Below the pieces are notes generated by a model. The model had not been told where the DNA came from, did no database searches, and saw only the letters and a list, made by a program, of their open reading frames with translations. The translations under genes were made by a program, and so were the position numbers. From an uncultured Chloroflexia bacterium (GTDB taxonomy: Bacteria > Chloroflexota > Dehalococcoidia > DSTF01 > JALHUB01), in contig OY969814.1 of assembly GCA_963703345.1 (NCBI GenBank), forward strand, positions 1,472,001-1,536,000: 64,000 nucleotides of DNA, written 5' to 3'. Positions 673 through 33,605 of the stretch are shown here, piece by piece. The first letter of the stretch is position 1. The number at the start of each line of letters is the position of its first letter.

Positions 673-699
673 TCAACCCTTGGCGGAAAGTGCCGATGA
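673..699 (+). promoter_or_regulatory. sigma-28 (FliA/WhiG)-like promoter
   Basis: TCAA-N15-GCCGATGA, 40 nt before ATG739. Confidence 0.45.
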
Positions 700-738
700 T
701 CTCCTCAGACGGGAATCTTCGGTGCAGGAGGCACGGCA

Positions 739-1083
739 ATGAAAAAACCAGCCAAGCGAGAGCATGGAATCCACTACGCCCTCATTAGCAAGGCCAGCAA
801 ACCTTGCCCCAGTTGTGGCGGCGAAAAGGGCTGGCACAAACATGCTCACTGCGAAGGGCTCCGCGCACGCTGGGGCTCCTGTGTCGTAACTCATGAGGAC
901 GAGAAGCGCGGCGCCCGCCGCTGCCGCCTGCCGCTCGGCTGGGACGTAGGGCACCGCATGTCCTGGCGGGGAGGGCGCCTGCACTTCCATCAGTACACGG
1001 GCGACGGGCTCTACTGCGAGCATCACGCGCGCGAGCTGGCGACGCACTTGAACCTGCCGGACGAACAACACCACGTGGCTTAG
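739..1083 (+). CDS. Hypothetical Cys/His-rich protein (114 aa), possibly Zn-binding
   Basis: SD AGGAGG before the ATG; CPSC, HAHC and CEHH motifs. Confidence 0.6.
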   Translation: MKKPAKREHGIHYALISKASKPCPSCGGEKGWHKHAHCEGLRARWGSCVVTHEDEKRGARRCRLPLGWDVGHRMSWRGGRLHFHQYTGDGLYCEHHARELATHLNLPDEQHHVA

Positions 1084-1174
1084 GTCCGATGGTGGCCCTC
1101 GCTGAGGTCTGCGCGGATATGAACGGGGGCCCGACACGCGTAGAGCCCCTTTTGATGCCAACCGTCCAGCCTCT

Positions 1175-2701
1175 CTAGGACCCTGGGACTCCTTCGTACA
1201 TTAGATCGGTGTCGCCGGGATAGTCGCCCGCGATCACGTCTCCCAGGGCAACGATCGGCTTGTCCGAATCGATTACCATCGAGCCGGTGAAAGACGCCGG
1301 CAGATTGTTTTCCCACGCCTGGAGAAGCTTCGCCGTCCCGTTCACCTTCATCTTGTAGGAGTATTGCCCTCCCGGCAGGTCGCCGCTGACGTAGCGAATT
1401 GTCAGATTCGCAGCGCCGCCGTCGGCCGTCGCCACCTGCACCCATGAGGTCAGACCGGCGCGGCTGGCCCCGTCCGGCGAGTTCTTGTCGACGAGCGGCA
1501 GGTAGACGCGCTTGCCCGCCGTGTCGGTGCGCAGGCCGCGATAGCTGGTATAGACATCGCCGCGGTTCGACGAGCGCGACACGACGACGCCGACCGGCCG
1601 GTTCGACGTTATCAGCGCCGTGCCGTCGTGGAAGTTCTGCGGCAGCGTGTCGCCGGGAGCCAGGCAGTTGGCGACGTCGCTGTCCTGGAAGCACTGCCGC
1701 GACGCCTGGACGAGGAAGCTGCTGCTCTTGCTCACCGGCTGGTTGTTCCCGTCCAGGCCGTCGATCTTGACAGTAACCGTCGCCGCCTGGGCCGGATCGC
1801 TGTTCATTACCTCGAAGTCCGTGCTCCACTCGCCGCCGGCGGTGCGCTCGATGATCGGCAACAGGATCGAAGTGCCCATATCGTTGCTCGTGAAGCCGCT
1901 GTAGCCGGCGAACTGGTGTGTGTCGACGTTGAACGTGTTGGCCGTCGCGACGACGAACTGCTGCGACGGGGGCACGCCCTGCGCGTTAGGGTAGAGGTCG
2001 ACGCGCACGGAGCCCGCGAAGTTGTTATCAACGCCCATCGTTTGGTACGAGCGGAAAAGCGTCGCGCCCGCCTGGATGGGGGTGCCGCCCTGCGGACAAC
2101 CGTCCTGGGGCGTGAAGCCGCCGACCTGCGGGTTGAACGGGTCCCAGTGGACCGCCGAATCGCTGTAGTTGCTCGTGTAGACGAGCGTCGCACAGGCGAT
2201 CGTGCCGCCCATGTTCTGAACGGCGAAGCGGGAGTTCCAGGCCTGCGCCGGGCCGTCCTTTTTGATCACCAGCGGCAGGTAGAGCTTGCCTGAGCCTGCG
2301 TTCACCGCTACTGTGTCGCCGGCCGTCTGGTAGAAGCCATCGCCGGCATCGACGTCGCTTGCCAGGAGGACGGCGATCGGCTGGTCGCTCGTGACAACCG
2401 CTGAACCGATAAAGCCCGTAGGAAGAGTGCCGCTGCGTCCCTCAATGAACGTCCAGCCGCCGCCCGGCGGGATGGCTGGACAGGTCCCCGGGCATGATTC
2501 GCTGGCGACGACGTTGCCCTGCGCGCCCAGATACCTTATCTCGACGTTCGCGGCCGCGCTGCCCATATTCTGGATGCGAATCCAGGAGTTCTCGGTGTGC
2601 AGCGTGTAGCAGGACGATTGAAGGAGAATCAGGATTGCGGCCAGCGGTAGCAGGAAGATCGTTCGGTGATGTCGTCCGCGGACGAGAACTGAAGCTCGCA
2701 T
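1175..2701 (-). CDS. Secreted or lipoprotein surface protein with about 4 internal beta-rich repeats
   Basis: SD GGAGGG before ATG2701; hydrophobic signal with lipobox-like LQSSC; repeated (I/V)QN.G and (L/V)YLPLV.K motifs. Confidence 0.8.
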   Translation of the reverse strand: MRASVLVRGRHHRTIFLLPLAAILILLQSSCYTLHTENSWIRIQNMGSAAANVEIRYLGAQGNVVASESCPGTCPAIPPGGGWTFIEGRSGTLPTGFIGSAVVTSDQPIAVLLASDVDAGDGFYQTAGDTVAVNAGSGKLYLPLVIKKDGPAQAWNSRFAVQNMGGTIACATLVYTSNYSDSAVHWDPFNPQVGGFTPQDGCPQGGTPIQAGATLFRSYQTMGVDNNFAGSVRVDLYPNAQGVPPSQQFVVATANTFNVDTHQFAGYSGFTSNDMGTSILLPIIERTAGGEWSTDFEVMNSDPAQAATVTVKIDGLDGNNQPVSKSSSFLVQASRQCFQDSDVANCLAPGDTLPQNFHDGTALITSNRPVGVVVSRSSNRGDVYTSYRGLRTDTAGKRVYLPLVDKNSPDGASRAGLTSWVQVATADGGAANLTIRYVSGDLPGGQYSYKMKVNGTAKLLQAWENNLPASFTGSMVIDSDKPIVALGDVIAGDYPGDTDLMYEGVPGS

Positions 2702-2830
2702 GTCATCCCTCCACCCTCGAAGCCCGTCCGTGTGATGATAAGCAAAGGGCCTTCCGCCCGTCAAGCGAAGGAGCGCAATCGTCGACAGAGAATATGGCAT
2801 CCGCGTCGCTTCACGCTTATACTTCGGTTG

Positions 2831-4453
2831 ATGCTCGCTGAAGCCACGACCTCACGCCAACGAATGCCGCTGCTTCGGGCTGTCGCCGCCGTTCGCCTCT
2901 GGTTCCGGCGATACCGCCTCGTATGCGGCGCCTTCCTGGTCGTCCTCCTGCTTGGCCTGCCAACGCTCATCGTGCCCTTCTTTACCGATGCGGCCGACTT
3001 TGCCCTCGGCGCCCGCACGATACTCTCCGGCGGCGTGCTGTATCGCGACTTCTGGGAGGTGAAGTCGCCGGCCATCTACTTCGTCTACGCGTTCGCCTTC
3101 GTTCCGCTCGGCCAGCACATGGTCAGCGTCCGCATCCTCGACCTCGCCAACACCGGACTCGCCATGGGCGTCGTCTATCTGCTTGGCCGGCGCTTCTTCG
3201 GTGAGCGGGCGGGCATTCTTGCCGGCTGTCTCTATGGCGTGACGTATCTGACGCGCGCCGGCTTCGAGGGGCTGGGCGAAGTGGAGAGCTTTCTGGCGCT
3301 GCCGGTCGTCCTGTCCATTCTGTTCTATCGCCCAAATTCCGAGCGCGGCGTCAATGCCGGCGCATTCCTCTCCGGCGTCCTGCTTGGCCTGGCGTTCAGC
3401 ATCAAGTTGTCCGCCCTCTTCTTCGTCCTGGCCCTTCCGGCCGTGGAGGTCATGTTCGCAGAGAGGCCGCTTCGGATTGCACCCGCGCTGAAGCGCCTGT
3501 CGATTGCCGCGACCGGTTTTCTGGTGATACCCGCCGTCTTTGTCGTCTACCTGGCGGCGGGAGGCGCCCTCCGCGACTTCATCGACATCCAGCGACTGCA
3601 CGTCTGGCCCTACACGTCACTTCGCTGGTCGCCGCCGGGCGAATCCTACCTCCACTTCCTGGCCCGCGCTACCCATGACTATATGCTGCACAACCTGTTC
3701 CTCGTCGTGCCTGCTGCCGGCGCCCTCTTCGTTGCGCTGGCGGGCTCGCGACGCAAAGAGACCGCACTCGTCGCCATCCTGGCGATTGCGTCGCTGGCCG
3801 GCGTCTGGAGCCAGGGCAAATTCTTCGCCTACCACTATCTGGCGATGATCTTTCCGCTGGCGCTTCTCGCCGGCTTTGCAATCGACAGAGTCGTCGCTTA
3901 TGTGAGTGGACCTGGCTTCCCTGCTCAGCGATGGGCCGCCTATGGGCTGGCGGGCGCTTTCCTCGTCCTGCTCACGCCGAGCCTGCTCTCCAACCCCTAC
4001 GAACAGTACCGTCAGTTCCTGGGCTATGCGACGGGCAGGGTGACGCGGGAGGACAACGAGGGCCAGTGGGGGCCGTTTTTCCGTCTCGATCGTGAGGTGC
4101 TGGACTATGTGAGGGCGAACGGCGACGGCGACACGAGCCTCTTCATCTGGGGGAATTGGCCCGTCATCTACTGGTGGGCCGACCAGCCGTTGGTCAGCAG
4201 GTTCATCTTTGAAACGCCACTCTCTGCGACTTGGGCCCCCGAGGCGTGGCGAAGCGAGCTCGTCGACGATCTCCAGACGCAGCAACCCCACTTCATCGCC
4301 GTCGCGGCCAGTGCCCCCCAGCCGTGGCTAACCGGCACGAACGAGACCACGGTCGAGGCGCTCGCGGCTTATCCCGGGTTGAGCGACCTTCTGGCGCAAA
4401 GCTACGAGGCGAGGTGGGCGAACGACCTCTTTCGCGTTTACGTGCGGAAATGA
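2831..4453 (+). CDS. GT-C fold membrane glycosyltransferase (ArnT/PMT-like, GT39/83)
   Basis: Multi-TM protein; LYRDFWEVKSPAIY and YHYLAM motifs; ATG2831 lies 7 nt after TATACT (ORF track start 2732). Confidence 0.8.
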   Translation: MLAEATTSRQRMPLLRAVAAVRLWFRRYRLVCGAFLVVLLLGLPTLIVPFFTDAADFALGARTILSGGVLYRDFWEVKSPAIYFVYAFAFVPLGQHMVSVRILDLANTGLAMGVVYLLGRRFFGERAGILAGCLYGVTYLTRAGFEGLGEVESFLALPVVLSILFYRPNSERGVNAGAFLSGVLLGLAFSIKLSALFFVLALPAVEVMFAERPLRIAPALKRLSIAATGFLVIPAVFVVYLAAGGALRDFIDIQRLHVWPYTSLRWSPPGESYLHFLARATHDYMLHNLFLVVPAAGALFVALAGSRRKETALVAILAIASLAGVWSQGKFFAYHYLAMIFPLALLAGFAIDRVVAYVSGPGFPAQRWAAYGLAGAFLVLLTPSLLSNPYEQYRQFLGYATGRVTREDNEGQWGPFFRLDREVLDYVRANGDGDTSLFIWGNWPVIYWWADQPLVSRFIFETPLSATWAPEAWRSELVDDLQTQQPHFIAVAASAPQPWLTGTNETTVEALAAYPGLSDLLAQSYEARWANDLFRVYVRK

Positions 4454-4475
4454 GGCTGACGGTCTCCGGCGACGC

Positions 4476-5303
4476 TCAGGCTCGGGCGCGGTAGCCCGTC
4501 CCCTGCGCCGAGACGTCCATTCCCGCCGTAAGAATGCGCTCCGCTGGCAGTGGACGCTCTTTCGTCTCGCGGAGGTCTATCGTCTTCAGATAGCGACGGC
4601 AGCGTTCGCAGACAGCCAGGCGGTGGACCTTGTCGTCGCTGGGGAAGAAGGCCAGCTCCTTCGGGTCGTCGTTGCCGCAGAACGGGCAGCCCAGGCGGCG
4701 AAACGCCCATTCCGCGTCGCAGCGCGAGCAGAGCAATCGCCTGCGGCCGCCGCTTCTCTCCAGCGCAGCCATGTCGGGCTCGCCGCCGCAGATCGGGCAA
4801 TAGCCGCGATACCAACTGCTCGCATCGACGAGGCGGCTGAGCGATTCGGCCCGTGCCCGCAGGAACGGGTACAGGGCGTTGTGCATGATAAACGCGAGCA
4901 GCGCGCCGTCTATGTTGCTGTTGCTCTCCGGCATGATTCCGCCGCTGAGATAAGCTACCGCCAGCGACTTCATGCGGTGCCGGCGACGGTGCAGCCAGGC
5001 GTGGATGTCGGCGAGCTGCTTGACGCGCTCCCGCCGGCACTCCGCAATCGCGAAGGCGATCTGCATAGCCAGGTCCGTCAGCTTGTCGGGGTCAACGTCC
5101 AACTCCTCGATCACGAGCAGCGGGTTACCGCGTTGCAGGCGGGTCCGCGCTTCCTCGGGCTTCGGAACGTCCGCTTCCATCGAGACCTGCACGCGCGATT
5201 GGATTTCCAGCAGCTTGCAGCACAGGTCGACGGTCTCCGCCAGCTCGGGGCGCTCCGCGGCTCCCTGTTCGAGGGCGGCCATGATTTCGCTGTAATCGTT
5301 CAT
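4476..5303 (-). CDS. fdhE: Formate dehydrogenase accessory protein FdhE
   Basis: CPICGGEP, R.L.CSRC..EW...RLGCPFCGN and CERCRRYLKTID motifs. Confidence 0.88.
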   Translation of the reverse strand: MNDYSEIMAALEQGAAERPELAETVDLCCKLLEIQSRVQVSMEADVPKPEEARTRLQRGNPLLVIEELDVDPDKLTDLAMQIAFAIAECRRERVKQLADIHAWLHRRRHRMKSLAVAYLSGGIMPESNSNIDGALLAFIMHNALYPFLRARAESLSRLVDASSWYRGYCPICGGEPDMAALERSGGRRRLLCSRCDAEWAFRRLGCPFCGNDDPKELAFFPSDDKVHRLAVCERCRRYLKTIDLRETKERPLPAERILTAGMDVSAQGTGYRARA

Positions 5304-5333
5304 CTCAGGTTCCAGTCTAGATGCTTTCGCGGC

Positions 5334-5366
5334 AAAAGAAAAAGGCGACCCTCGCGAGCCGCCTTT
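5334..5366 (-). terminator. Rho-independent terminator
   Basis: AAAGGCGGC..GTCGCCTTT stem followed by TTCTTTT on the minus strand. Confidence 0.7.
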
Positions 5367-5387
5367 GCCTCTCCCATACGTTCACTC

Positions 5388-5894
5388 TTAGCTTGAGCCG
5401 GCTGCCCCGTCGTGGGGCGCCTGGCCGAACAGCGGCAGGTACTTCGCCGCGACGTAGAATACCAGCGCCAGGCCGGCCCACAGCCCGAACGTGAAGCCGA
5501 ACTCCAGCGGGTGCGGGATGTACGTCGGCGATCCCGGCGGCCTGGCCCAGGAGATGATGCTGACGTCGACGCGGTTCAGCATCAGCCCCAGCACGACCAT
5601 CAGGGCCGCCGTGAAGCGCAGCGCTGCGTTCTCCCGCGCGCCTTTCGAGAGGAGCAGCAGCATCGGGATGATGATGCCCACGGACACCTCGAGCCAGTAG
5701 ACGGCGCTGCTCCGCGTCCCCTCAAACAGAAGGCCCAGCTCACGCGCGCCGGCCAGGTCGGCGACCTTGGCGACGAGGTAGATCCCCAGCAAGAAGGGAA
5801 GCGCCTTCGCCAGCGTAGCCATCGCCTCGCCGTCCGGCTTGCGGCCCAGCGCCTTCGACGTCGAGCGCAATCGCGATGGAAGCTGGAGCCTCAC
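5388..5894 (-). pseudogene. 5'-truncated NrfD/HybB-family membrane anchor subunit (C-terminal part)
   Basis: SKALGRKP..LAKA..YL.AK..DL, GL.LNR.DV and TYIPHP.E motifs match the NrfD C-half; in-frame stop just upstream, N-half absent. Confidence 0.7.
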
Positions 5895-5994
5895 CGACGC
5901 CAGCGATGTCGCCTACGACCTCTCCGGCAACTTGGGGCAACCTCCCTGGTAGCGATCCCGCTCGAACAGGGCGGTTGCCACACATGAGATGAGC

Positions 5995-6020
5995 AAGACC
6001 TGCGCAAGGACGCAGGTCTT
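5995..6020. terminator. Perfect 10-bp hairpin downstream of the HD-GYP gene
   Basis: AAGACCTGCG-caagga-CGCAGGTCTT. Confidence 0.5.
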
Positions 6021-6108
6021 CTCTTTACGCTATTGTCGATTGCCCGGGTGTGGTGGGATCGCGCGAAGGCGGCTAATCGGTGGAGTTGCGGCGGTGCTCG
6101 GCCGTCGT

Positions 6109-9100
6109 CTAGGCGGCCCTCATGAGAGCGGAGATGCCGCGCCGCTGGACCGAGGCTATGCGAGCGATCTCGCCGGACGCCACCGCCCGCTCGAACGCTT
6201 CGACGACTTCCGGCGAATACCGCGTGCCCTTCGTTGCCCGCAGCTCCCGCATGGCGCGGGCCGATGGCCAGGCGCCCTTATAAGGTCGCCGTGAGGTCAT
6301 GGCGTCGAAGCCGTCCGCCACTGCGACGATCATTGCAGCGAGGGGAATCTGATCGCCCGCCATGCGATCCGGGTAGCCCGTGCCGTCCCAGTTCTCATGA
6401 TGCCAGCGGGCGATCTGACGCGCCGTCTGGAACCAGGGATCGCGCGGCAGCAGCCTCTCTCCCCAGGCGGTGTGGCGTCGCATGATTTGCCATTCCTCTT
6501 CGGTGAGAGGCCCCGGCTTCGTCAATATTGCGTCCGGCACGCGCGTCTTGCCAAGGTCATGCAGCAAAGCCGCAAGTCCTATCTCCTTGGCGACCTCCGC
6601 GCCCAAGCCCATCTGCAGGGCGATCGCCTCCGAGTAGCCGCGTATTCGGAAGAGGTGATGTTCAGTGTACGGATCACGGGCCTCGGCAGCGAGCGCCAGG
6701 AGGAGCGTCGTCTTCTCGTAGGCATCTTGCCGCTCCCGCTCCAGGTTCGTATGCTCGGTTATGTCTTCCAGCGTGCCCACAAGCCCCGTCCGCTCGCCTT
6801 CGCCTGACAGGATGGACGTGACGTGCACGCGGGCCCATCGCGTTTCGCCGGATGCGGTCGTGATGCGAAACTCGTGCGAGAGCTCGTAGACCGGCTGACG
6901 GGCGGCCTCCTCATGCTTCTGCCAGGTCGCCTCCCGGTCTTCTGAGTGCACGATTGCGTTCAGCGCGTCCGTGACATCCTCCGGAATGCTTCCAACAATC
7001 GCCTGGAGGCACTCGTTGACATAAGTAACCCTATCTTCGGCGTCCACGAGGAAGATGCCGACGGGCGCGGAGGCGCTCAGCGACCGGAATCTTTCCTCGC
7101 TCTGCCGCAACGCCTGCTGGGCCTGGCGGCGCTCGGTAATATCCTCAATCGTGCCGACAAGGCCGGCAAAGCGCCCGTCTTTGGAGCGGAGATAAGTCGC
7201 GCGCGCGTACACCCAGCGCGTGACGCCGTAAGGCGTCAGAAGGCGCAGCTCTTGCGAGAACTCGCTTCGTTCCTTGATAGAGTTGATCATTCTGGTGATC
7301 ACATCGTCACGGTCGTCGGGATGGACCACTGCGAACCAGTTGGCATCGGGGTTCTCGATAAAGGAGAAGCCGGCGATTTCGGTGAAGCGTTCGTTTACAA
7401 ACGTCACCCTGCCCATAGGGTCGGACTGGAAGATACCGATGGGCGCCGAGGCGCCGAGAGAGCGGAACTTCTCCTCGCTCTGTCGCAGCGCATCTTCCGC
7501 CAGCTTACGAACAGTTATGTCCTCCAGTGTGCCGACGCGGGCGCCCTGGTTGCCGATGGGCGTCGACCGGGCGCTCACCCAGCGCGTCTCTCCGGCCGGC
7601 GTGACGATTCGAAAGTCCTCCGCAAACTCGTGACCCTCAGCGTTCGCGGCCCTCTTCGCTTCGATGACGCGCTCGCGGTCGTCGGGATGAATTACTCTCA
7701 GCCAGCCCAGGCCCAAGGACTCCTCGGTGGTTAGGCCGCAGATGGCGAGCATGCGCTCATTAACGTAGATGGTCCCCCCTTGCGCATCGGTCAAGAATAT
7801 GCCGACCGGCGCTGCGGCGCTGAGCGAACGGAATCGCTCTTCGCTCTCACGTAGCGCCTCTTCCGAGCGCAGACGCTCCGTAACGTCGCGCGCCATCCCA
7901 TGCGCAGCCGGCGGCCCGCCCGGCCTCTGTACCGCCGCGGCCAGCGTCTCGATTTCAATGCATGTCCCGTCCCTCCGGCGCAGCCTGAAGATCAGCGGCT
8001 CCGACTGCCGGCCTATTGTCTCAAGCTCCTCGACGAGCGCGGCAACGGGGCGAGAATAGTCCTCGGCCCAAAGGTCAGCGAAGTTCAGTTTCGCCATCTC
8101 CTCCCGGGAGTAGCCGAAGAGCTGCAAATACCTGTCGTTGGAGTCCAGGAAGCGGCCCTTGAAGTCGTAGAGATAGACCGCGTCCGGCGAGCGCTCGAAG
8201 AGCATGCGGTATCTCTCTTCGCTCTCGCGCAACGCCTGCTCCGCCCGCTTGCGCTCGATGAACGACGCCGTGCTCTCCGCTGCCAGCCGCACGAGTCTTA
8301 CGTCCTGATCGTGCCAGATGTGGGAGCCGCGCGTATCACCGAACGCCATGAAACCCGCCAGCTTGCCGTGGTTGCTGAACGGCACGGCGAGCAGCGAGCG
8401 TACCCGCATGTTCTGGAGCAGTTCCTTCTCGGCCGATGCCTCCGCCGGCAACTGGTGCAGGTCATGGAGGACGATGTCCTCGTTTCGCTCCAGCTTGCCC
8501 ACCCACCAGGCGTAAGTTGCCGTGTCGAGTCCCTGGAAGCGGTCTCTCGTAGGTCTCCTGCCGGGAACATTCCACTCATGTGTGTTGTCCAGCCGGCTGC
8601 CGTCTCTATTGAACATGAAGACGTAGGCGTGCTCGACGTCTACGGTCTCGCCGAGAATGCGCAGCGCCGCGATAAGCGCGCCGTTGACGCTGTTCGCCGT
8701 GGCCAGCACCGTCGATACCCGCGCCACCGCCGATTCCAGTCTTACCCGCTGCCGCATCTGGTCCGTTACGCCGTCCAGCCTCCCGACCATCTCGTTGAAA
8801 TCGCTGGCGAGCGAAGCCACCTCCGTCGGCCCCGAAACCTCGACGCGTGACTGCATGTCGCCTGACGCCACAGCTCGGACGCCGCGCTGGAGGGACGCAA
8901 GAGGCTTCACGACCGAACGAAGGAAGCTTGTGAGCACAGCAATCGCCAATAGGGCGCCGGCGGTGCCGATTATCGAAAGCAGCCAGAGATTCAGGTTCGC
9001 CTGGGAATTCGCGTTGGAAACGTCGGCGGAAACGGCCTCCTGCTCCGCCTGCGACACTTGAGCCAGGTTGGCGAGAAGGAGGTTAGCAACGGGCAGGAGC

Positions 9101-9564
9101 TTGGACATGTAATCGGCAACGGCTGTTTGCGAATCGCCCTGAGGCGCATATGAGTTTATCATCTCGCTTACCTGGCCCGCGTATTCTTGGGCGCGGTCCA
9201 TGTCGCTGATGAGGTAGGCGTCTCCTTCCGCCTGAATGTTATTCCGGGCCATCTGAAGGAAAGCCTGCCCTTGAGCGACGGCGTTATAGTAGGAATCGTT
9301 GAGGGGGTGGGGGTTGTTTGTGAGCACCGAAGTGGCGAAGAACATGCCGGCGGAGAAGAACTGAGCCCGCGCTTCCTCGAGATCGAGAACTGTGGTGGTC
9401 TTCTGTTCGAGGGCCTTGTGAGTCTTGCGGTCCGCGTTCATCCGGCTGATGCCCAACAGGGCAACGGCGGCAAGCAAGGCAAGCAAAACAAAGCTGGCCA
9501 GTAGCGAGCGCCCCTTAATAGTGCCGAACGCGCACCTTCCAAACCACCTGGAGAATTTTGCCAT
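6109..9564 (-). CDS. Membrane sensor: HAMP, GAF, 4x PAS and HD-GYP c-di-GMP phosphodiesterase
   Basis: Two TM segments and HAMP; SEE(R/K)FRSL..AP.GIF PAS repeats; HDLGK and HHENWDGTGYP. Confidence 0.9.
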   Translation of the reverse strand: MAKFSRWFGRCAFGTIKGRSLLASFVLLALLAAVALLGISRMNADRKTHKALEQKTTTVLDLEEARAQFFSAGMFFATSVLTNNPHPLNDSYYNAVAQGQAFLQMARNNIQAEGDAYLISDMDRAQEYAGQVSEMINSYAPQGDSQTAVADYMSKLLPVANLLLANLAQVSQAEQEAVSADVSNANSQANLNLWLLSIIGTAGALLAIAVLTSFLRSVVKPLASLQRGVRAVASGDMQSRVEVSGPTEVASLASDFNEMVGRLDGVTDQMRQRVRLESAVARVSTVLATANSVNGALIAALRILGETVDVEHAYVFMFNRDGSRLDNTHEWNVPGRRPTRDRFQGLDTATYAWWVGKLERNEDIVLHDLHQLPAEASAEKELLQNMRVRSLLAVPFSNHGKLAGFMAFGDTRGSHIWHDQDVRLVRLAAESTASFIERKRAEQALRESEERYRMLFERSPDAVYLYDFKGRFLDSNDRYLQLFGYSREEMAKLNFADLWAEDYSRPVAALVEELETIGRQSEPLIFRLRRRDGTCIEIETLAAAVQRPGGPPAAHGMARDVTERLRSEEALRESEERFRSLSAAAPVGIFLTDAQGGTIYVNERMLAICGLTTEESLGLGWLRVIHPDDRERVIEAKRAANAEGHEFAEDFRIVTPAGETRWVSARSTPIGNQGARVGTLEDITVRKLAEDALRQSEEKFRSLGASAPIGIFQSDPMGRVTFVNERFTEIAGFSFIENPDANWFAVVHPDDRDDVITRMINSIKERSEFSQELRLLTPYGVTRWVYARATYLRSKDGRFAGLVGTIEDITERRQAQQALRQSEERFRSLSASAPVGIFLVDAEDRVTYVNECLQAIVGSIPEDVTDALNAIVHSEDREATWQKHEEAARQPVYELSHEFRITTASGETRWARVHVTSILSGEGERTGLVGTLEDITEHTNLERERQDAYEKTTLLLALAAEARDPYTEHHLFRIRGYSEAIALQMGLGAEVAKEIGLAALLHDLGKTRVPDAILTKPGPLTEEEWQIMRRHTAWGERLLPRDPWFQTARQIARWHHENWDGTGYPDRMAGDQIPLAAMIVAVADGFDAMTSRRPYKGAWPSARAMRELRATKGTRYSPEVVEAFERAVASGEIARIASVQRRGISALMRAA

Positions 9565-9717
9565 ACGCGCCTAGATCGCTATCCAAACGTAGCGGTTAAC
9601 AGTTCCCCTCGAAGGATTGTCGGACTTGCAATCTCCCTTCGGTAGACGTGCCGAGGGCAATCGTCCGCCGCGAAGGGTGGACGGGCTGTGGAACAGGGGT
9701 ACGAAGTACTCGCGGAG

Positions 9718-24996: not shown

Positions 24997-25021
24997 GCGC
25001 CCCTACGATTCGCACCCACCG

Positions 25022-25157: not shown

Positions 25158-25209
25158 TGGGGTAGATAGGCGCGCTTTCTCGAAGGAAGCGATAGCAAGG
25201 TGGTGTCGA

Positions 25210-25977
25210 GTGCCCGCGAAAGAGCCTTTCTTCAAGATCGACAATCTCCACGTCAATGTCGAGTCCCGCGAGATCGTCAAAGGCCTCAGCCTGGAAGTCG
25301 GTCGTGGCGAAGTGCACGCGATAATGGGCCCCAACGCCTCCGGCAAAAGCACCCTCGCCAACGCCATCATGGGACACCCGCGCTACGAGGTGACCGCGGG
25401 AAGAGTGCTGTTCAAGGGCGAAGACATCACATCGCTCGGCTCGGACGAGCGGGCCCGCCGTGGTCTCTTCCTCGCCTTCCAGTACCCGCTGGCGATTCCC
25501 GGCGTCACGATGGTCAATTTCCTCCGCACGGCGCTGCGTGCTGTCCGCGGCAGTGACGTGCCGGTCCGCGAGTTCCGGGCGATGCTGCATGAGACCATGG
25601 CGAAGCTGAAGATCGACGAGGACTTCGCCCGCCGCTACGTCAACGATGGCTTCTCTGGCGGCGAGATGAAGCGGGCCGAGGTGCTGCAAATGGGCATCCT
25701 CCAGCCCGACATGGCGATTCTCGACGAGACCGACTCCGGCCTGGATATCGACGCCCTCCGCACCGTCTCCGAAGGCGTCAACAGCCTGATGAGCAAGGAC
25801 CGCGCCATGCTGGTGATCACCCACTATCAGCGCATCCTGAACTACGTTCAGCCGCAGTTCGTCCACGTCCTCTTCGACGGGCGCATCATCAAGTCCGGCG
25901 GCCGCGAGCTGGCCGAGGAACTGGAAGCGGAAGGTTATGAACGCCTTACCGGCGCCGCTTCGGAGGTGGCTTCATGA
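25210..25977 (+). CDS. sufC: Fe-S assembly ATPase
   Basis: [20 protein letters not shown] and DETDSGLD motifs; GTG start inferred downstream of the promoter. Confidence 0.93.
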
Positions 25978-27380
25978 CCGACCGCAAGGCCGTCGAGATA
26001 GCCGAAGACGGCTACAAGTGGGGCTTCCACGACGAGGCGCGCTACATCTTCCGGACCGAGAAGGGCCTCTCGCGCAAGGTCGTCCAGCAGATCGCGGGCA
26101 TCAAAGAGGAGCCGGAGTGGATGCGGGAGATGCGACTTCGCGCGCTCGAGGTCTTCGAGTCGAAGCCGATGCCCGGCTGGGGGCCCGACCTTTCGGCGGT
26201 GAACCTGGACGATATGTACTACTACGCGCGCGCCAGCGACCGCGCTGAACGTGACTGGGAGGACGTGCCGGACTACATCCGTCAGACGTTCGACCGGCTG
26301 GGCATACCGGAGGCGGAGCGCAAGTTCCTCGCCGGCGTCGGCGCCCAGTACGACTCGGAGACCGTCTATCACAACATCCGCCAGGAGCTGTCGAAGCAAG
26401 GCGTCATCTTCGTCAACATGGACACGGCTGTCCGCGAGTACCCGGAGCTGGTCCGCCGCTACTTTGGCACCATCGTGCCGCCCGGCGACAACAAGTTTTC
26501 GGCTTTGAATAGCGCCGTCTGGAGCGGCGGCAGCTTCATCTACGTGCCGGAGGGCGTGCGCGTCAACGTGCCGCTTCAGGCCTACTTCCGCATCAATGCC
26601 GAGAACATCGGCCAGTTCGAGCGCACGCTCATCATCGCCGAGCCCGGCAGCTTCGTCCACTATATCGAAGGCTGCACGGCGCCTATATACACCAGCAACT
26701 CCCTGCACGCCGCCGTGGTCGAAGTCATCGTCAAGAAGGGCGCGCGGGTGCGCTACAGCACCGTCCAGAACTGGTCGACGAACGTCTACAACCTTGTGAC
26801 GAAGCGCTCCGTCGCTTATGAGGACGCCGTAATTGAGTGGGTCGACGGCAATCTCGGCAGCAAAGTCACGATGAAGTACCCGGCGATCTATCTCATGGAG
26901 CCGGGCGCCCGCGGCGAGGTGCTGTCTCTCAGCTTCGCCGGCCGCGGCCAGCATCAGGACGCCGGCGCCAAAGCCGTCCATGTGGCGCCGTACACCAACT
27001 CCGTCATAACCTCCAAGTCCATCAGCAAGGACGGCGGCCGCGCCAGCTACCGCGGCCTGGTGAAGGCCTACCGTGGCGCGAAGGGCATCCGTTCCTCCGT
27101 CCGCTGCGACGCTTTGCTTCTCGACGAAGACTCGCGCTCCGACACCTACCCGACGATGGAGATCGACGAGCGCGACGTCTCGGTCAGCCACGAGGCGAGC
27201 GTCAGCAAGGTCAGCGAAGAGCAGCTCTTCTACCTGCGCAGTCGCGGCATCGACGAGCAGGAGGCGACGAAGATGATCGTCAACGGCTTCGTGGAGCCGG
27301 TCGTGAAAGAGCTGCCGATGGAGTACGCGGTCGAGCTGAACCGGCTCATTGAGCTGCAACTGGAGGGGGCGATAGGCTAG
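25974..27380 (+). CDS. sufB: Fe-S scaffold
   Basis: [16 protein letters not shown] and GSKVTMKYP motifs. Confidence 0.96.
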
Positions 27381-27384
27381 CGCC

Positions 27385-28692
27385 ATGTTGAGCTCCGTTG
27401 CCAGCCGCGAACATCAGGCCATCGAGCAAATATCCGCTCGCAACGACGAGCCGGTCTGGCTCCTCCAGCATCGTCTGAAGGCCTCCCGCCTCTACGGCGA
27501 CATGTTGCTGCCGACCGGCCAGGAGGAAGAATGGCGCCGGGTGGACCTGCGGGCCGCGAACGTAGATGGCCTGGACCTGTCGGCGGGACCATCAGATGCG
27601 ACGGCGTCAGCCACGTTGCATGACGAAGAAGGCTACGGCGGCCAGATCGTGCAGCAGGACGGACTGACGCTGCGCCGGCGCCTCTCCCGCGAGATCGAAC
27701 GGCAGGGCGTGATCTTCACGGACCTTCATGCCGCCGCCCGAGAGCAGCCGGATCTCTTCCGAGCCAATTTCATGACAGAAGCCGTGCAGCCGATAGTCTG
27801 GAAGCTGGTCGCCTTGCACGCCGCTCTCTGGAAAGGCGGCGTCTTTCTACACGTCCCCGCCGGCGCTAATATCACCGTTCCTCTCCACGCCCGCGTGGGC
27901 GGGTCTGATGCCGAAGCCATCTTTCCGCACACCCTCATCGTCGCCGAAGAGGGCAGCAGCGCCACCCTCGTCGAAGAGCAGGTTTCCGACGAGAGCGGAC
28001 GCCACAAGTTCAGCAGCGGCGTCGTCGAGATCCTCGTGCGACGCGGCGCCGGCGTCCGCTACGTCGGCGTCCAGGACTGGAGCCGGAACGCCAACGCCTT
28101 CGCGACCATCCGCGCGATTGTCGACGAAGAAGGATACCTGGAGCTCGGCCTTATCGGCACCGGCGGCCGCACCACGAAGACCAACGTTGAAGTCATCCTT
28201 TCGGCGCCGGGGGCTACAGCCAGCATCGCCGGCCTCTTCCTGGCCTCAGGCGAGCAGCAGATGAGCTACGCCACTCTCCAGGACCATCGCGCGCGCAACA
28301 CGACGAGCGATCTGCTTCTGAAGTCCGCCATAAAGGACAGCGCCCTGCTGGTCTGGAACGGCCTGACGCGCATTCGTAAGGGCGCCGGCGAAAGCGATGC
28401 CAATCAGACCAGCCGCAACCTGCTTCTCGGCGAGAACGCCCGCGTAGCGCCGATTCCCGTGCTCGAGATCGAGGCGCACGACGTCGCCCGCTGCAGCCAC
28501 GGGGTCACCGTTAGCTCGGTGGACGAAGACCAGCTCTACTACATGATGTCGCGCGGTCTTAGCCGGCAGGAGGCGACAGAAGCCATCGTCGACGGCTTCT
28601 TCCGGCAGGGGCTGGAGCGCCTGAGCCTCGTCCGCGCCTACGATTTCGTCGGCCGTCTCCTTGAGCGCCGGCTGGTGGCGAAGGCAGCCTGA
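27385..28692 (+). CDS. sufD: Fe-S assembly protein
   Basis: EEWRR, P.LEI...DV.RCSHG and YYMMSRG motifs. Confidence 0.92.
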   Translation: MLSSVASREHQAIEQISARNDEPVWLLQHRLKASRLYGDMLLPTGQEEEWRRVDLRAANVDGLDLSAGPSDATASATLHDEEGYGGQIVQQDGLTLRRRLSREIERQGVIFTDLHAAAREQPDLFRANFMTEAVQPIVWKLVALHAALWKGGVFLHVPAGANITVPLHARVGGSDAEAIFPHTLIVAEEGSSATLVEEQVSDESGRHKFSSGVVEILVRRGAGVRYVGVQDWSRNANAFATIRAIVDEEGYLELGLIGTGGRTTKTNVEVILSAPGATASIAGLFLASGEQQMSYATLQDHRARNTTSDLLLKSAIKDSALLVWNGLTRIRKGAGESDANQTSRNLLLGENARVAPIPVLEIEAHDVARCSHGVTVSSVDEDQLYYMMSRGLSRQEATEAIVDGFFRQGLERLSLVRAYDFVGRLLERRLVAKAA

Positions 28693-28694
28693 AA

Positions 28695-29033
28695 ATGATG
28701 CGCGAGGCTGTGAAGGTAGCGGCAACGCGGGATATCCCGCCGGGAGCGGTCAAGGTAGTGGACACAATGGGACGCCGGATCGCAATCTGCAACCTCGGCG
28801 GTGAGTACTTCGCGGTCGACGACGTTTGCACGCACGACGGCGGACCGCTGGGCAGCGGCAGGCTCTGCGACGGCGAGATCGAATGCCCGCGCCACGGCGG
28901 TCGCTTCGATGTTCGCAGCGGTCGCGCCACCGTCTTTCCGGCTGTGAATGCGATTCGTACCTACCAGGTGTCAGTCAGCGGCGGAGACGTGGTGCTGTCG
29001 ATTCCCGGGGGGGCAGGAGGACGCGATGTTTGA
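28695..29033 (+). CDS. Rieske ferredoxin
   Basis: CTH and CPRHG..FD motifs. Confidence 0.88.
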   Translation: MMREAVKVAATRDIPPGAVKVVDTMGRRIAICNLGGEYFAVDDVCTHDGGPLGSGRLCDGEIECPRHGGRFDVRSGRATVFPAVNAIRTYQVSVSGGDVVLSIPGGAGGRDV

Positions 29034-30270
29034 CGTTGAAGCGATACGCAAGGACTTCCCGATCCTCGAGCGCACCGTGCATGGCAAGCCCCTGGTCTAC
29101 CTGGACAACGCCGCCACCACACAGAAGCCGCACGCCGTCATCGACGCGCTCGTTGAGTACTACGAGCACTATAACTCCAACATCCATCGCGGCCTGCACA
29201 CCCTCGCCGAGGAGTCGACAGCCCGCTACGAAGAGGCGCGGCAGAAAGTCGCGCGCTTTATCAATGCGCCGGGCCCGGAGAGTATCATCTTCACCCGCAA
29301 CGCCACCGAGTCGATCAACCTCGTCGCACAGGGCTGGGGACGCACGCATATCAGAGCCGGCGACGAGATCGTCCTCACGGTCATGGAGCACCACAGCAAT
29401 CTGGTGCCCTGGCAGATGCTGGCGAAGGAGACCGGCGCCGTTCTCCGATTCGTCGATATCGATGACGAAGGCCGGCTGCGCCCCGAGGACTGGCCACGCC
29501 TTGTCGGCGAGAGGACGAAGCTGGTCACGCTGACGCAGATGTCGAACGTGCTCGGCACTATCAACCCCGTGCGCGAGATCGCTGCCCTTGCCCACCGGTA
29601 CGGCGCTCTCGTCTTCGTCGACGGCGCCCAGAGCGTGCCCCACATGCCGGTAGACGTCCAGGATCTGGATTGCGATTTCCTGGTCTTCTCCAGCCACAAG
29701 ATGCTGGGCCCCACCGGCGTCGGCGTCGTCTACGCCCGGCTCAGCGTCCTTGAAGAGACAACGCCGTTCCTGACCGGTGGCCACATGATCAGCAGGGTAA
29801 CGCTGGAAGACTCCACCTGGAACGACCTCCCGTGGCGCTTCGAGGCGGGCACGCCGAACATCGCCGACGTAATCGCATTCGGCGCTGCCATAGACTACCT
29901 CACGGGCATCGGCATGAGAGCGGTGCGCCGCCACGAGATCGAGCTCACGGCCTACGCCTTGCAGGTGCTGTCGGAGATACCAGACGTGACACTTTACGGG
30001 CCGAAGGATGCGTCTGTACGCGGCGCCGCGGTCTCCTTCAACCTTGGGGAGCTCCATCCCCACGACATCGGCACCGTCCTCGACAGCTACGGGATCGCTA
30101 TTCGCGCCGGCCACCACTGCGCTCAGCCCCTGATGACGCGCCTGGGCGTTGTCGCCACCGCGCGCGCCAGCTTCTATCTTTACAACACTCGCGAAGAAAT
30201 CGACGCTCTGGTGCGGGGAGTCAAGGAGGCCGCGAAGTTCTTTGGAAATGTCATCAGCAGCCGAACCTGA
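29026..30270 (+). CDS. sufS: Cysteine desulfurase
   Basis: YLDNAATTQKP, SSHKM.GP and RAGHHCAQP motifs. Confidence 0.95.
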   Translation: MFDVEAIRKDFPILERTVHGKPLVYLDNAATTQKPHAVIDALVEYYEHYNSNIHRGLHTLAEESTARYEEARQKVARFINAPGPESIIFTRNATESINLVAQGWGRTHIRAGDEIVLTVMEHHSNLVPWQMLAKETGAVLRFVDIDDEGRLRPEDWPRLVGERTKLVTLTQMSNVLGTINPVREIAALAHRYGALVFVDGAQSVPHMPVDVQDLDCDFLVFSSHKMLGPTGVGVVYARLSVLEETTPFLTGGHMISRVTLEDSTWNDLPWRFEAGTPNIADVIAFGAAIDYLTGIGMRAVRRHEIELTAYALQVLSEIPDVTLYGPKDASVRGAAVSFNLGELHPHDIGTVLDSYGIAIRAGHHCAQPLMTRLGVVATARASFYLYNTREEIDALVRGVKEAAKFFGNVISSRT

Positions 30271-30709
30271 GCTCGACGAGCTCTACAAAGACCTGATCCT
30301 CGACCACTACCGGCGGCCGCGAAACCGTCACTCCGTCGCGGAGCCGAAGGTTGTCGGCGAGGGCTATAACCCTCTCTGTGGCGATGAGATCGCCGTCGAG
30401 GCCCACATCGAGGGCGACGTTCTTGCCGACGTTGGCTTTCAGGGGCGCGGCTGCTCCCTCAGCCAGGCCTCCGGCTCCATGATGACCGAGGCGATCAAGG
30501 GGAAGACGCTTCAGGAAGCGCGGTCGCTCATCGCCCAGTTCACGCGCATGATGACCAATCCGGCATCTCCGGCGTCCGAAGAACTTGGCGACCTGGAGGC
30601 ATTCATCGGCGTCGCCAAGTACCCGGTCCGCGTGAAGTGCGCCACGCTCGCCTGGCACGCTCTAATAGACCTGCTGAACCAGTACGAGCAGACGCAGGAG
30701 AGTTGCTAG
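30248..30709 (+). CDS. sufU: SufU/NifU-type protein
   Basis: NPLCGD, G.GC..SQAS and RVKCATL motifs. Confidence 0.92.
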   Translation: MSSAAEPELDELYKDLILDHYRRPRNRHSVAEPKVVGEGYNPLCGDEIAVEAHIEGDVLADVGFQGRGCSLSQASGSMMTEAIKGKTLQEARSLIAQFTRMMTNPASPASEELGDLEAFIGVAKYPVRVKCATLAWHALIDLLNQYEQTQESC

Positions 30710-30711
30710 CC

Positions 30712-31017
30712 GTGCTCTTCTCGGAAGAAGTGGTCCGCGAACGCCTGCGCGACGTGCTCGATCCGGAGATGCGTCTCAGCGTCGTCGACCTTGGTCTCAT
30801 CTACGCGATCGACATTGAAGGCGACACTGTGCGCGTCACCTATACTCTTACCAGCCCCGCCTGCCCTCTCGGCGGCCTCATCGCCGAGCAGATCCGTCGC
30901 GCCGTGCTGGATATCCCGGGCGTGCGGGACATCGAGCTGTTGCTCACGTTCAGCCCGCCCTGGGACCCAAACACCATGGCCAGCGAAGACGCGCGGATGG
31001 AGATGGGCATCTGGTAG
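30712..31017 (+). CDS. sufT: DUF59/PaaD-like Fe-S maturation factor
   Basis: V.DPE, VVDLGLIY, TLTSPACP and PPW motifs. Confidence 0.85.
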   Translation: MLFSEEVVRERLRDVLDPEMRLSVVDLGLIYAIDIEGDTVRVTYTLTSPACPLGGLIAEQIRRAVLDIPGVRDIELLLTFSPPWDPNTMASEDARMEMGIW

Positions 31018-31350
31018 GTTGCGCCCGCTCCGCGCGGACCTTCCCAGGCTGTTGAAGAACTACCCTAGCCGAGACTTTCTAGTCTCGGCGCCGAACCTGC
31101 GGCCAGGCTGGGAAGCGTGGCCTACGCGCCTTTCGAGCTTCGGCTTTCTGCGATTTCGGCCGTTCAGGGGCTATCCCCCAAGTTAAGTCGGGTGCTGACA
31201 CCCTTCATCCAGCCCTCCTGAGTATCGACATACAAACAGACCCTTAATGGTTGGAAGCGGTAGCCAGGAGGATGGCTGCCGCAAGCCCCGCCCAACGGCG
31301 GGAGACGGGCCGCGTCTTACAGGGCCCCGCTCCGAATAAGGAGGGAGTGA

Positions 31351-31938
31351 ATGAGCAGACTACTCAAGCTATTCAGAAAGGCAACCGGGAAAGAGGAAGG
31401 CATCACCGGTCTGGAGACCGCCATCATATTGATTGCCTTCGTAGTTGTGGCGACCGTCTTCGCGTTCGTCGTGCTGAGCACAGGTCTATTCAGCTCTGAG
31501 CGAGGCAAAGAAGCGGTCTACGCAGGACTCGCGAAGACCGAGGGTTCGCTGGAGTTGAGGGGAGCCGTTATCGCTAACACCGACGGCTCGATCGTGGACA
31601 CTCTCGTCTTCGACCTGGCCAACGCCGCCGGCGGCGAACCCGTCAACCTCGACCCGACCGCCGTCAGCAACAAGATGGTCATCGCCTACCGCGACGCCAA
31701 CACCACCATCCCCAGCATCGCCTGGGACGTCAACTTCCTGGTGCCAGCAACGCCGCCAGCGAACAACAGCTACCTGCTAATGGAAGGTGAGCTGGCGGAA
31801 ATCACGGTGGACATCACGGCTGAGGCTCTTGGGCCGAACCAGCCGTTCACCATTGAGGTGAAGCCACCGCTCGGCGGTACCATGACCATCGCCAGGACGA
31901 CACCTGCCGGCCTGGATACAGTGGTTGACCTCCATTAA
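31351..31938 (+). CDS. arlB: Archaellin (archaeal-type flagellin ArlB/FlaB)
   Basis: Class III signal ..KEEG|ITGLETAIILIAFVVVA.VFAF.VLSTG; C-terminal GE..EI and F.IEVKPP.G motifs. Confidence 0.9.
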   Translation: MSRLLKLFRKATGKEEGITGLETAIILIAFVVVATVFAFVVLSTGLFSSERGKEAVYAGLAKTEGSLELRGAVIANTDGSIVDTLVFDLANAAGGEPVNLDPTAVSNKMVIAYRDANTTIPSIAWDVNFLVPATPPANNSYLLMEGELAEITVDITAEALGPNQPFTIEVKPPLGGTMTIARTTPAGLDTVVDLH

Positions 31939-32008
31939 GGAGCAACTGCTCTCCTTAAGGAAAGCCAGGCGGACGCGGCCGTAGGATTCCAACAATAGAG
32001 CCCAAAAT

Positions 32009-32040
32009 CTGGGCACCCGCTCGAAAGAGTGGGTGCCCAG
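32009..32040 (+). terminator. Strong hairpin after the archaellin gene
   Basis: CTGGGCACCCGCTC-GAAA-GAGTGGGTGCCCAG. Confidence 0.6.
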
Positions 32041-32200
32041 TCATCTCCTTGAAGCCCCCTTTCACCGGCTCTGCACGCTTCGCTCAAACACGTCCCGAGG
32101 CACCCACGATAGGCCTGTGCTGCCAGTGGACATTTAGCCGGAAGGCGTGCTATAGATATCCACAATCGGGAATCGAAGCAGGAAATAGGAGGTTTCTTTC

Positions 32201-32851
32201 GTGGCAAACGACATCGAGGCAAGACTCGAAGCCCTGAAAAGAGAGGTGGAGGGGCTGAAGGGCAAGGCCGTCACGGTCACGGAGACTATTGCGAACCCCG
32301 CGCCTCTGGGTCTCGCCGGCTTTGGTCTCACCACGCTGCTGCTCAACGTGGTGAACGCAGGCATCATCAACAAGACCGACATTGGGATGGTGTTGCCCGT
32401 CGGTCTCTTCTACGGCGGTCTCGCGCAGTTGCTGGCCGGCCAGTGGGAGTTCAAGAAGAACAACACCTTTGGCGCGACCGCCTTCACGTCCTTCGGCGCC
32501 TTCTGGCTGTCCTTCGCTGTGATGGAGATACTGATCGGCAACAAAATTCTGGGTCCGGTATCGGCTCCGGGCGGCATCACGGTGTTCCTGATCGGATGGG
32601 GAATCTTCACCACCTACATGTTTGTCGGCACCATGAGGATCTCAGTGGCGCTGATGGTCGTGTTCGCAGCGCTGGCGATTCTCTTCTATCTGCTGGCCTG
32701 GGGCGCACACAGCGGAAACTCGAATGTCGAACACTTCGCTGGCTATGAAGGTCTCTTCACTGCCGGCGCGGCGCTGTACGCCTCATTCGCCCAGATCGTC
32801 AACGAGACCTGGGGCCGCGTACTCCTGCCCCTGGGCGTAATCAAGAAATAG
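32201..32851 (+). CDS. satP: GPR1/FUN34/YaaH acetate uptake transporter
   Basis: ANPAPLGLAGF, FYGG.AQ and NTFGATAF motifs. Confidence 0.9.
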   Translation: MANDIEARLEALKREVEGLKGKAVTVTETIANPAPLGLAGFGLTTLLLNVVNAGIINKTDIGMVLPVGLFYGGLAQLLAGQWEFKKNNTFGATAFTSFGAFWLSFAVMEILIGNKILGPVSAPGGITVFLIGWGIFTTYMFVGTMRISVALMVVFAALAILFYLLAWGAHSGNSNVEHFAGYEGLFTAGAALYASFAQIVNETWGRVLLPLGVIKK

Positions 32852-32922
32852 CAGGCGCTCTTAGCGAGAAGAGGGCGCTCGCGGAGGCAACCGCCTAGAC
32901 GCGAGCGGGCCAGGAACCATTG

Positions 32923-32961
32923 GGCCGCCGGCGAAGGATTCTTCGTCGGCGGCCTCTCTTT
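32923..32961 (+). terminator. Rho-independent terminator
   Basis: GGCCGCCGGCGAAG-gatt-CTTCGTCGGCGGCC followed by TCTCTTT. Confidence 0.7.
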
Positions 32962-33072
32962 GTCCGGCCCCGTCCGACCCTGCGCTGGACAAGCAGAAGC
33001 GACGGCCGAACGGCCGCCGCTTCCATCGCTGGCCCCCTGGTCTTCTTATGGGCTGCCCGTTCCCTGGCCGGA

Positions 33073-33522
33073 TTAGGCCGCCGTTATCAGCAGGACCGGC
33101 ACGTGCGACTCCCTTAGCACCTGGTCGGCGACGCTTCCGAACATCAGTCGCGCCACGCCCCGTCGCGAACGCGTGGCCATGGCGATGATATCCGTGCCGT
33201 ATTCGGCCGCCGCCTTCAGTATCTCGCTCGACGGGTTGCCGAAGCGAACTTCCATCTCCGGCTTCAGGCCGTGGTCCTCAAAGCGCTCCGCCACAGGCCG
33301 GAGATGGTTCTCCGCCTCCTCTATCTGCGACTCGACCCAGGCAAGGCTGGCCACCTCGTCGCTGTCGCCATCCTGCGTAACCTGGCTGTTACGCTTGTCG
33401 AGATCGACGACCGTAAGCAGCCGAATGCTGCATCCAAATGCCTTCGCTGTCTCGGCGGCATGCTGTACTACGACTTCGGAACGAAGGGAACCATCCACCG
33501 GGACCAGCATCTTCTTGTACAT
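33073..33522 (-). CDS. Universal stress protein
   Basis: MYKKMLVPVDGS and FGSVADQVLR....PVL motifs. Confidence 0.92.
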   Translation of the reverse strand: MYKKMLVPVDGSLRSEVVVQHAAETAKAFGCSIRLLTVVDLDKRNSQVTQDGDSDEVASLAWVESQIEEAENHLRPVAERFEDHGLKPEMEVRFGNPSSEILKAAAEYGTDIIAMATRSRRGVARLMFGSVADQVLRESHVPVLLITAA

Positions 33523-33577
33523 GGCGTCCTACCTCCGACCTGAAAGCAGTAAGCGCTATATTGCTAGGCTCAAGAAG

Positions 33578-33605
33578 ATATCGGCAGACGCCAGACCGAT
33601 CTATA
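33578..33605 (-). promoter_or_regulatory. sigma-28-like promoter of the usp gene
   Basis: TATA-N16-GCCGATAT on the minus strand. Confidence 0.55.

Follow-up and report, generated by a model that had tools for sequence, protein, structure and literature searches.

A predicted sigma-28-type regulon that includes an archaellin gene in an uncultured Dehalococcoidia bacterium, with a candidate operator and regulator

We analyzed a 64,000-nucleotide (nt) stretch of DNA (hereafter the window) from an uncultured bacterium of the class Dehalococcoidia, phylum Chloroflexota (assembly GCA_963703345.1, contig OY969814.1, positions 1,472,001 to 1,536,000). Four genes in it, an orphan archaellin gene (arlB), the universal stress protein gene usp, a small open reading frame (ORF739) and a gene for an HD-GYP-type signalling protein, are preceded by conserved promoters of the sigma-28 type (consensus used: TAAA-N15/16-GCCGATAA). 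In the reading that we favor with moderate confidence, these promoters would be read by one of two FliA/WhiG-family sigma factors encoded in the genome, and the weak archaellin promoter would depend on a regulator acting through a tandem box. The existence of a sigma-28-type regulon as such appears very likely from sequence comparison. The genome is a single contig of 2.28 Mb, 95.9% complete, and its 1215 upstream regions were defined using genes from our own hexamer-based caller; the one RNA run (X1) was available as contigs only, short pieces that cover a small share of the stretch.

A regulon of five sites had been proposed in the initial annotation, and all five bipartite sequences were present with exactly the spacers and orientations claimed, upstream of usp, a 114-codon open reading frame (ORF739), a PMT_2/GT-C gene, the archaellin gene and a PAS/GAF/HD_5 gene (Pfam). 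Matches to the consensus amounted to 10 of 12 positions for usp and for the site at 673, 8 for GT-C and HD-GYP, and 6 for the archaellin. Because matches of 8/12 or better occur in 490 of the 1215 upstream regions and matches of 7/12 or better in 1062, the GT-C, archaellin and HD-GYP sites are at chance level by consensus alone, as expected if the matches had arisen by chance in GC-rich DNA or were conserved together with nearby sequence. Orthologs were then aligned, and identity to the window sequence was compared between the -10 box and the spacer. The usp promoter (33578-33605, reverse strand; T..AG-type -35, GCCGATAT -10) had a -10 identity of 0.99 vs. 0.55 in the spacer (9 orthologs), the HD-GYP promoter (9617-9644, reverse strand; weak -35, TCCGACAA -10) 0.95 vs. 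0.55 (8 orthologs), and the ORF739 promoter (673-699, forward strand) 0.90 vs. 0.70 (6 orthologs from a single genus, one contig-end ortholog having been dropped). The CGA of the -10 was invariant (1.00) in all three, and in the -35 of usp and HD-GYP the first T alone was conserved. At the archaellin site identity was 0.97 in the -35, 1.00 in CGA, 0.78 in the -10 and 0.67 in the spacer (10 orthologs, 5 genera), and the spacer length was fixed, with no indel in 10/10 orthologs. The GT-C site, with a -10 identity of 0.38 and a CGA identity of 0.22 in 6 orthologs, was removed from the regulon, and the other four proposed members were retained on their footprints. The chance explanation thus holds for GT-C and draws some weight from the single-genus orthologs and spacer identity of ORF739. 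As an account of the whole set it is refuted, and we give it very little probability: four sites have boxes better conserved than their spacers, which are fixed in length, the enrichment described below is specific to spacer and strand, and a GCCGA-type -10 precedes 24 of 30 csrA genes, which were outside the training set.

The orphan archaellin gene (31351-31938, forward strand; 195 aa) matches PF01917 with 90 bits and has 9I5H as its best PDB hit. Its promoter (31204-31231, forward strand) is a degenerate sigma-28-type sequence with -35 TTCA-N16 (or TCAT-N15) and -10 ATCGACAT. Abutting the -35 lies a proximal archaellin box, GGGTG-N4-CACCC (31190-31203), the predicted operator of the regulator, and further upstream a distal box, a degenerate RGGKG-N4-CMCCY palindrome (31166-31179) that was kept in 11/11 aligned orphan-arlB upstream regions. 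If transcription starts 6 nt past the -10 octamer (PMC2859248), the boxes are centered at about -41 and about -65. In the 2.28 Mb the exact 14-mer GGGTG-N4-CACCC is present at two places, upstream of both arlB genes of this genome, and one-mismatch counts over the whole genome had no peak at spacer 4, which argues for a specific box, not a global motif. A motif search on archaellin upstream regions, as suggested in the initial annotation, was run unseeded and returned both a CCT..-N14/15-..CGA motif and the tandem GGGTG/CACCC motif. When both archaellin sets were pooled (exact duplicates removed, kin kept), a T directly followed the box (+0) in 53 of 56 boxed promoters and CGA stood at +22 in 49 of 56. 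This is the TAAA-N16 register, and the window site is therefore better read as TTCA-N16-ATCGACAT. In 87 held-out archaellin regions the box-to-CGA offset of 22 occurred 22 times. A boxed-promoter model trained on 53 rows, none of them from this genome but close kin among them, ranked the genome's two arlB promoters first and second over both strands (25.7 and 25.1; next 20.5), and at held-out loci box density was 1.49/kb before arlB vs. 0.098/kb elsewhere (15-fold). A search for a sigma-70 site upstream of arlB was negative. We consider it likely, from spacing and conserved positions, that the archaellin promoter is read by a FliA/WhiG-family sigma factor. The initial annotation missed that this promoter belongs to a degenerate, operator-flanked class, which is probably regulator-dependent.

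Archaellin-family genes were found in 34 of the 41 genomes of the order. Eleven of 61 de-duplicated archaellin upstream regions carried a site of at least 10/12 at spacer 15/16. The antisense strand had none, six other spacer pairs had 0-1 and shuffles averaged 0.57, and the genome baseline was 14/735. One family contributed six of these 11 best sites and the window's genus none; full TAAA was present in 8/11. The earlier expectation that the motif would exceed background is borne out in this set of 61 archaellin upstream regions, and genome-wide the enrichment is modest. In the 87 held-out regions, of which many are inner tandem copies or belong to other lineages, 7 sites reached 14 bits or more with a trained matrix; antisense gave 0, other spacers 0-1 and shuffles 0.5. 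Genomes with boxed promoters also contain archaellin copies behind full CCCTAAAG-14-GCCGACAA promoters. With the same matrix, 9 of 20 fliC promoters from flagellated Dehalococcoidia scored at least 12 bits (0 antisense, 0.27 in shuffles), among them loose -10 forms (ATCGATAA, CACGACAC and TTCGAAAC); since 6/20 scored at a wrong spacer pair, spacing was not sharp in this test, and the plain consensus recovered 1 of 13 fliC upstream regions. Four distant archaellin-bearing Dehalococcoidia had no FliA-family hit over cut-off, and their archaellin upstream regions were all below 10 bits (9/9), with 1/9 reaching 10/12. The link between sigma-28 and archaellin is therefore limited to a lineage, which narrows the reach of the wiring initially proposed. 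Archaellins were found in 4 of 250 other genomes in a phylum-wide sample.

A gene for a FliA/WhiG-family sigma factor, which the initial annotation had named as a check, was sought in the genome and two were found, scoring 201.8 and 185.2 bits (TIGR02479, cut-off 189.6), the second just under the cut-off; the best PDB hits of both are WhiG/FliA chains. A match to the family is present in 41/41 genomes of the order, and class-wide in 42 of 201 genomes, among which are all 24 flagellin-encoding genomes and all 12 from the order. In a quick tree sigma-1 (30 rows) and sigma-2 (21 rows) formed separate order-wide clades (SH-aLRT 99), and both tentatively joined second FliA paralogs from outside flagellar loci (SH-aLRT 87-92, with long-branch warnings). 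Flagella are described as ancestral in the class and subsequently lost (PMC10284905). In this one-contig genome flagellin (PF00669) and FliW (PF02623) had no hit, and FlgM (PF04316) had a single one at E 0.046, below cut-off. The description of a "bacterial flagellar sigma regulon" is accordingly too strong, although sigma-28-type promoters are enriched upstream of archaellin genes in this order. A cyclic di-GMP (c-di-GMP)-I riboswitch lies directly upstream of sigma-2 (genome 1611973-1612065; L012:6974-7066), and a c-di-GMP-I-clan match was found in 16 of 19 further sigma-2 loci and in none of three family-f2 loci. Downstream of sigma-2 is an HD-GYP gene with TCAT-16-GCCGATAA, and near sigma-1 a cyclic di-AMP riboswitch (L013:12186-12317).

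The second archaellin gene, to which the window arlB is 82% identical, heads an arl locus (genome 1769376-1775869) with arlF/G-like, arlH, arlI and arlJ genes; PF01917 matched three times, FlaH and FlaI were over cut-off and the best ArlJ hit was below it. Divergently from this operon is encoded a regulator with a receiver and a LuxR-type helix-turn-helix (HTH) domain (NarL type), whose best NCBIfam hits were generic NarL-family models below cut-off. The regulator has a near-consensus promoter, CCCTAAAG-14-CCCGATAA, in the form C[CG]CTAAAG-14-[CG]CCGATAA in 12/12 same-family genomes. Orthologs (E <1e-50) were present in 20 of 41 genomes; their HTH segment EKSVENHIN is invariant, and the receiver position that we take to be the acceptor Asp (residue roles in the receiver are likewise assumed) is Asn here and in one relative, Gly in 7/20 and Asp in 11/20. 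Among 31 genomes with usable upstream regions, 17 had both box and regulator, 1 the box only, 2 the regulator only and 11 neither; the box-only genome is 82% complete, and one of the two regulator-only genomes has tandem boxes beside the regulator. This distribution gives us reasonable confidence that the NarL-type regulator would bind the archaellin box, and we lean toward a role as activator rather than repressor. In the proposed circuit, sigma-28 would transcribe the regulator, which would occupy the boxes at about -41 and -65 and recruit sigma-28 RNA polymerase to both archaellin promoters; sigma-28 and regulator acting together on archaellin would constitute a feed-forward loop.

A comparable arrangement is known from Streptomyces, in which the sigma-28-family factor WhiG transcribes WhiI, an orphan regulator of the NarL type whose receiver is degenerate; its partner BldM, an atypical response regulator, binds TCACcCgnncGgGTGA (PMC4125116). 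Transcription of such a regulator by a sigma-28-family factor is predicted here as well. The BldM half-site GGGTGA (PMC4125116) matches that of the archaellin box, which is a tandem GGGTG-N4-CACCC, vs. CACCC-N4-GGGTG in BldM. The target is a filament gene here and sporulation genes in Streptomyces, and the likeness to WhiI/BldM is one of half-site and receiver.

Several observations weigh against the sigma-28 and activator reading. The archaellin box is everted relative to the BldM palindrome, and CRP activates an E. coli sigma-28 promoter best from -49.5, not -41.5 (PMC2859248). The window archaellin promoter matches the consensus at 6/12 and boxed promoters at 2-8/12, their -35 being mostly TGC, so that the sigma factor is assigned from T, CGA and spacing alone. 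The window archaellin site also scored below zero in total with a first matrix (38 regions from other families). The plain consensus found 4 sites in the 87 held-out archaellin upstream regions vs. 2 antisense and a shuffle maximum of 4, which is chance level, and a two-mismatch search of the genome returned 20 regions vs. 7-14 at other spacers, a modest enrichment. Sigma-1 lacks some of the -10 contacts of the E. coli protein (P for Q73; Q, K and S for R94, R95 and R98), of which sigma-2 retains more. Relatives that were aligned or counted are non-independent, and the co-occurrence of box and regulator represents few independent evolutionary events. In favor of a sigma-28-type core promoter, C-13 and G-12 of the -10 are described as the key sigma-28 determinant and the -35 contact as weak (10.1101/2020.01.02.893370).

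Sigma-28 could also act indirectly, by making the regulator while the boxed archaellin promoters are read by another sigma factor, such as the BldN-family extracytoplasmic function (ECF) sigma factor encoded at 1571046. The -35 AAA and the extended -10 GC are indeed missing from boxed promoters, this ECF sigma gene itself stands behind a sigma-28-type promoter, and BldN drives bldM in Streptomyces (PMC4125116). However, the distance from T to CGA is exactly that of TAAA-N16, fliC promoters of the class have the same loose -10 forms, full sigma-28-type promoters stand at other archaellin copies of the same genomes, and the sigma-70 search before arlB was negative; we regard the ECF explanation as unlikely. 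Still less probable, in our estimate, is that the tandem box is a repressor site through which a regulator made by sigma-28 shuts archaellin off in a negative feedback. In its favor, a proximal box touching the -35 could block polymerase, and in the CRP precedent activation is best from -49.5 (PMC2859248). The weakness of boxed promoters, when unboxed ones reach 10-11/12, is expected if an activator offsets a poor core, and the spacing between box and CGA is constant to the single base, a precision that simple occlusion would not require.

Beyond the window, we scored all 1215 upstream regions with a matrix trained outside the genus. At spacer 15/16, 21 reached 14 bits or more, vs. 2-9 at eight other spacer pairs and 9 in antisense; usp ranked 4, the operon arlB 13, HD-GYP 33, the window arlB 65 and GT-C 484. 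Loose bipartite patterns counted genome-wide by spacer gave a faint 15/16 peak only. With 7-14 regions recovered at other spacers, perhaps about half of the 20 two-mismatch regions are genuine. Among the genes behind these 20 are those for the regulator, CsrA, two further HD-GYP proteins, a GGDEF-HD protein, the ECF sigma factor, Tad CpaB and a glycosyltransferase-20. The BldN-family ECF sigma gene, a Flp pilin gene and the Tad operon, with sigma-28-type promoters, lie together at genome 1571046-1578351 (L189:11047-18349); near this locus is another c-di-GMP riboswitch (1567868-1567985).

The csrA gene is located near sigma-1, has GCCGATAA as its -10 and is present in 39 of 41 genomes of the order. 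The window arlB has a predicted structured 5' leader of about 113 nt (31238-31350, forward strand; fold z -2.9, start inferred) in which the loop of a hairpin (31257-31282) carries one GGA; this candidate CsrA site is absent in 3/10 orthologs. Across 30 archaellin leaders ANGGA occurred 45 times vs. 23.9±4.2 in shuffles, and GGA in loops 19 times vs. 7.6±2.3; GGA density was 11.9/kb in archaellin leaders and 13.9/kb in fliC leaders, vs. 3.7/kb in the genome control. These leaders leave the chances about even that CsrA acts on archaellin mRNA. If it does, CsrA would tune archaellin translation via GGA loops in the long leaders, and c-di-GMP would enter the circuit through the riboswitch before sigma-2. 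The order might then have rebuilt a full flagellar-style hierarchy around an acquired archaellum, with sigma-28, an atypical NarL-type master activator, a private operator on every archaellin gene, CsrA acting on archaellin translation as it does on that of flagellin, and a riboswitch-gated sigma-2, a broader proposal that we hold tentatively and consider less probable than its core. A second CsrA-like protein (genome 1153933-1154223; L194:1937-2224) has two partial CsrA matches in one frame.

The regulon resembles that of Rubrobacter radiotolerans WhiG and the WhiG-WhiI system, and is neither a canonical flagellar regulon nor an RsiG switch. In R. radiotolerans a sigma factor of the flagellar clade with TAAA/GCCGATAA promoters is re-used for a type IV filament and c-di-GMP enzymes (PMC8325347), and predicted targets here likewise include HD-GYP/GGDEF genes and a Tad/Flp operon. 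Unlike in Rubrobacter, the target here is an archaeal-derived archaellin with a dedicated predicted operator, there are two sigma factors, one behind a c-di-GMP riboswitch, and an RsiG-type motif, searched as a sequence pattern with no profile search run, matched no called protein below 250 aa. The canonical FliA/SigD class-3 regulon with Hag-FliW-CsrA (PMC6529632, PMC4894983) has in common with the present one a CGA-core -10, a filament-subunit target, csrA and GGA-rich leaders, but fliC, fliW and flgM were not found here and the sigma factors stand apart from flagellar-locus FliA in the quick tree. The CRP-activated aer promoter of E. coli (PMC2859248) offers a precedent for an activator-dependent sigma-28 promoter; there CRP acts from -49.5, and here a NarL-type protein is the candidate activator, with tandem boxes centered near -41 and -65. 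As in the archaellum of Litorilinea aerophila (PMC12488501, PMC13319060), arlB and arlF/G-like, arlH, arlI and arlJ genes are found in one locus, the archaellin has 9I5H as its best PDB hit and flagellin was not found; unlike in the Litorilinea account, an orphan second arlB here shares the promoter architecture of the operon arlB. The main texts of PMC12488501 and PMC13319060 mention neither "promoter" nor sigma factors, and the transcriptional wiring of the archaellum is therefore undescribed there. Literature searches on archaella, Chloroflexota/Dehalococcoidia and FliA/WhiG returned no description of a link between sigma-28 and archaellin, although supplements (PMC10284905, PMC12488501) may note fliA or the regulator, and the accessible text of 10.64898/2026.01.14.699351 does not mention archaella. 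The archaellin circuit is now more specific and testable than as initially proposed.

A bacterial archaellum was first shown in 2025. Archaeal regulators such as EarA are known. Bacterial polymerase cannot read archaeal promoters, so that transferred archaellum genes had to be rewired. If correct, the circuit would illustrate how an archaeal machine came under bacterial gene control after its transfer. With a sigma family, a regulator candidate, an operator of 14 bp and precise promoter positions to hand, in vitro tests of the circuit would not require the organism in culture. Not all Chloroflexota archaella share the sigma-28 wiring, which suggests that the problem has been solved in more than one way.

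The usp gene (33073-33522, reverse strand; PF00582) has a TAGGG-N6-CACTA imperfect palindrome (33606-33621) that is kept in usp orthologs and ends 20 nt before the -10, the same placing as the archaellin box. A usp paralog, 95% identical (genome 1254579-1255025), has a different upstream region in which the sigma-28-type motif is absent, as is the case in two relatives; it is a duplicate put under other control. ORF739 (739-1083, forward strand) encodes a Cys/His-rich protein of 114 aa with no Pfam match, possibly metal-binding to judge from its composition; it is genus-restricted, occurring at 60-84% identity in 7 of 8 genomes of its genus and in none of 32 others. The signalling protein with HAMP/GAF/PAS/HD_5 domains (Pfam; HD-GYP type) is encoded at 6109-9564 (reverse strand), its ATG start at 9564 being kept in 5/5 close sequences. 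At the rejected GT-C site, the "TCAA" corresponds, on the opposite strand, to the -35 of TTGACG-18-TATCAT, a conserved sigma-70-type promoter (2735-2764, reverse strand) that faces the divergent gene 1175-2701. The GT-C gene has its own sigma-70-type promoter, ATGGCA-18-TATACT (2794-2823, forward strand), with TATACT invariant in 7/7 aligned sequences, and both promoters lie outside the regulon.

TAGGG-N5/6-CCCTA palindromes were observed near several sigma-28-type promoters (window 650-664 and 33606-33621; genome 1570922, 1570967 and 188035). One-mismatch hits to TAGGG-N5-CCCTA were 19 intergenic vs. 8 coding, and boxes similar to the TAGGG type flank archaellin promoters in regulator-less genomes; NarL-type genes at 1882505 and 1883387 are candidate binders. 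The sole perfect 12/12 sigma-28 consensus stands before a glycosyltransferase-20 gene of the trehalose-phosphate synthase type (genome 1970415; L191:3163-4416), which is split into two open reading frames in our gene calls. The window also contains a large SRP RNA (57014-57277) and two tRNAs (48809-48984).

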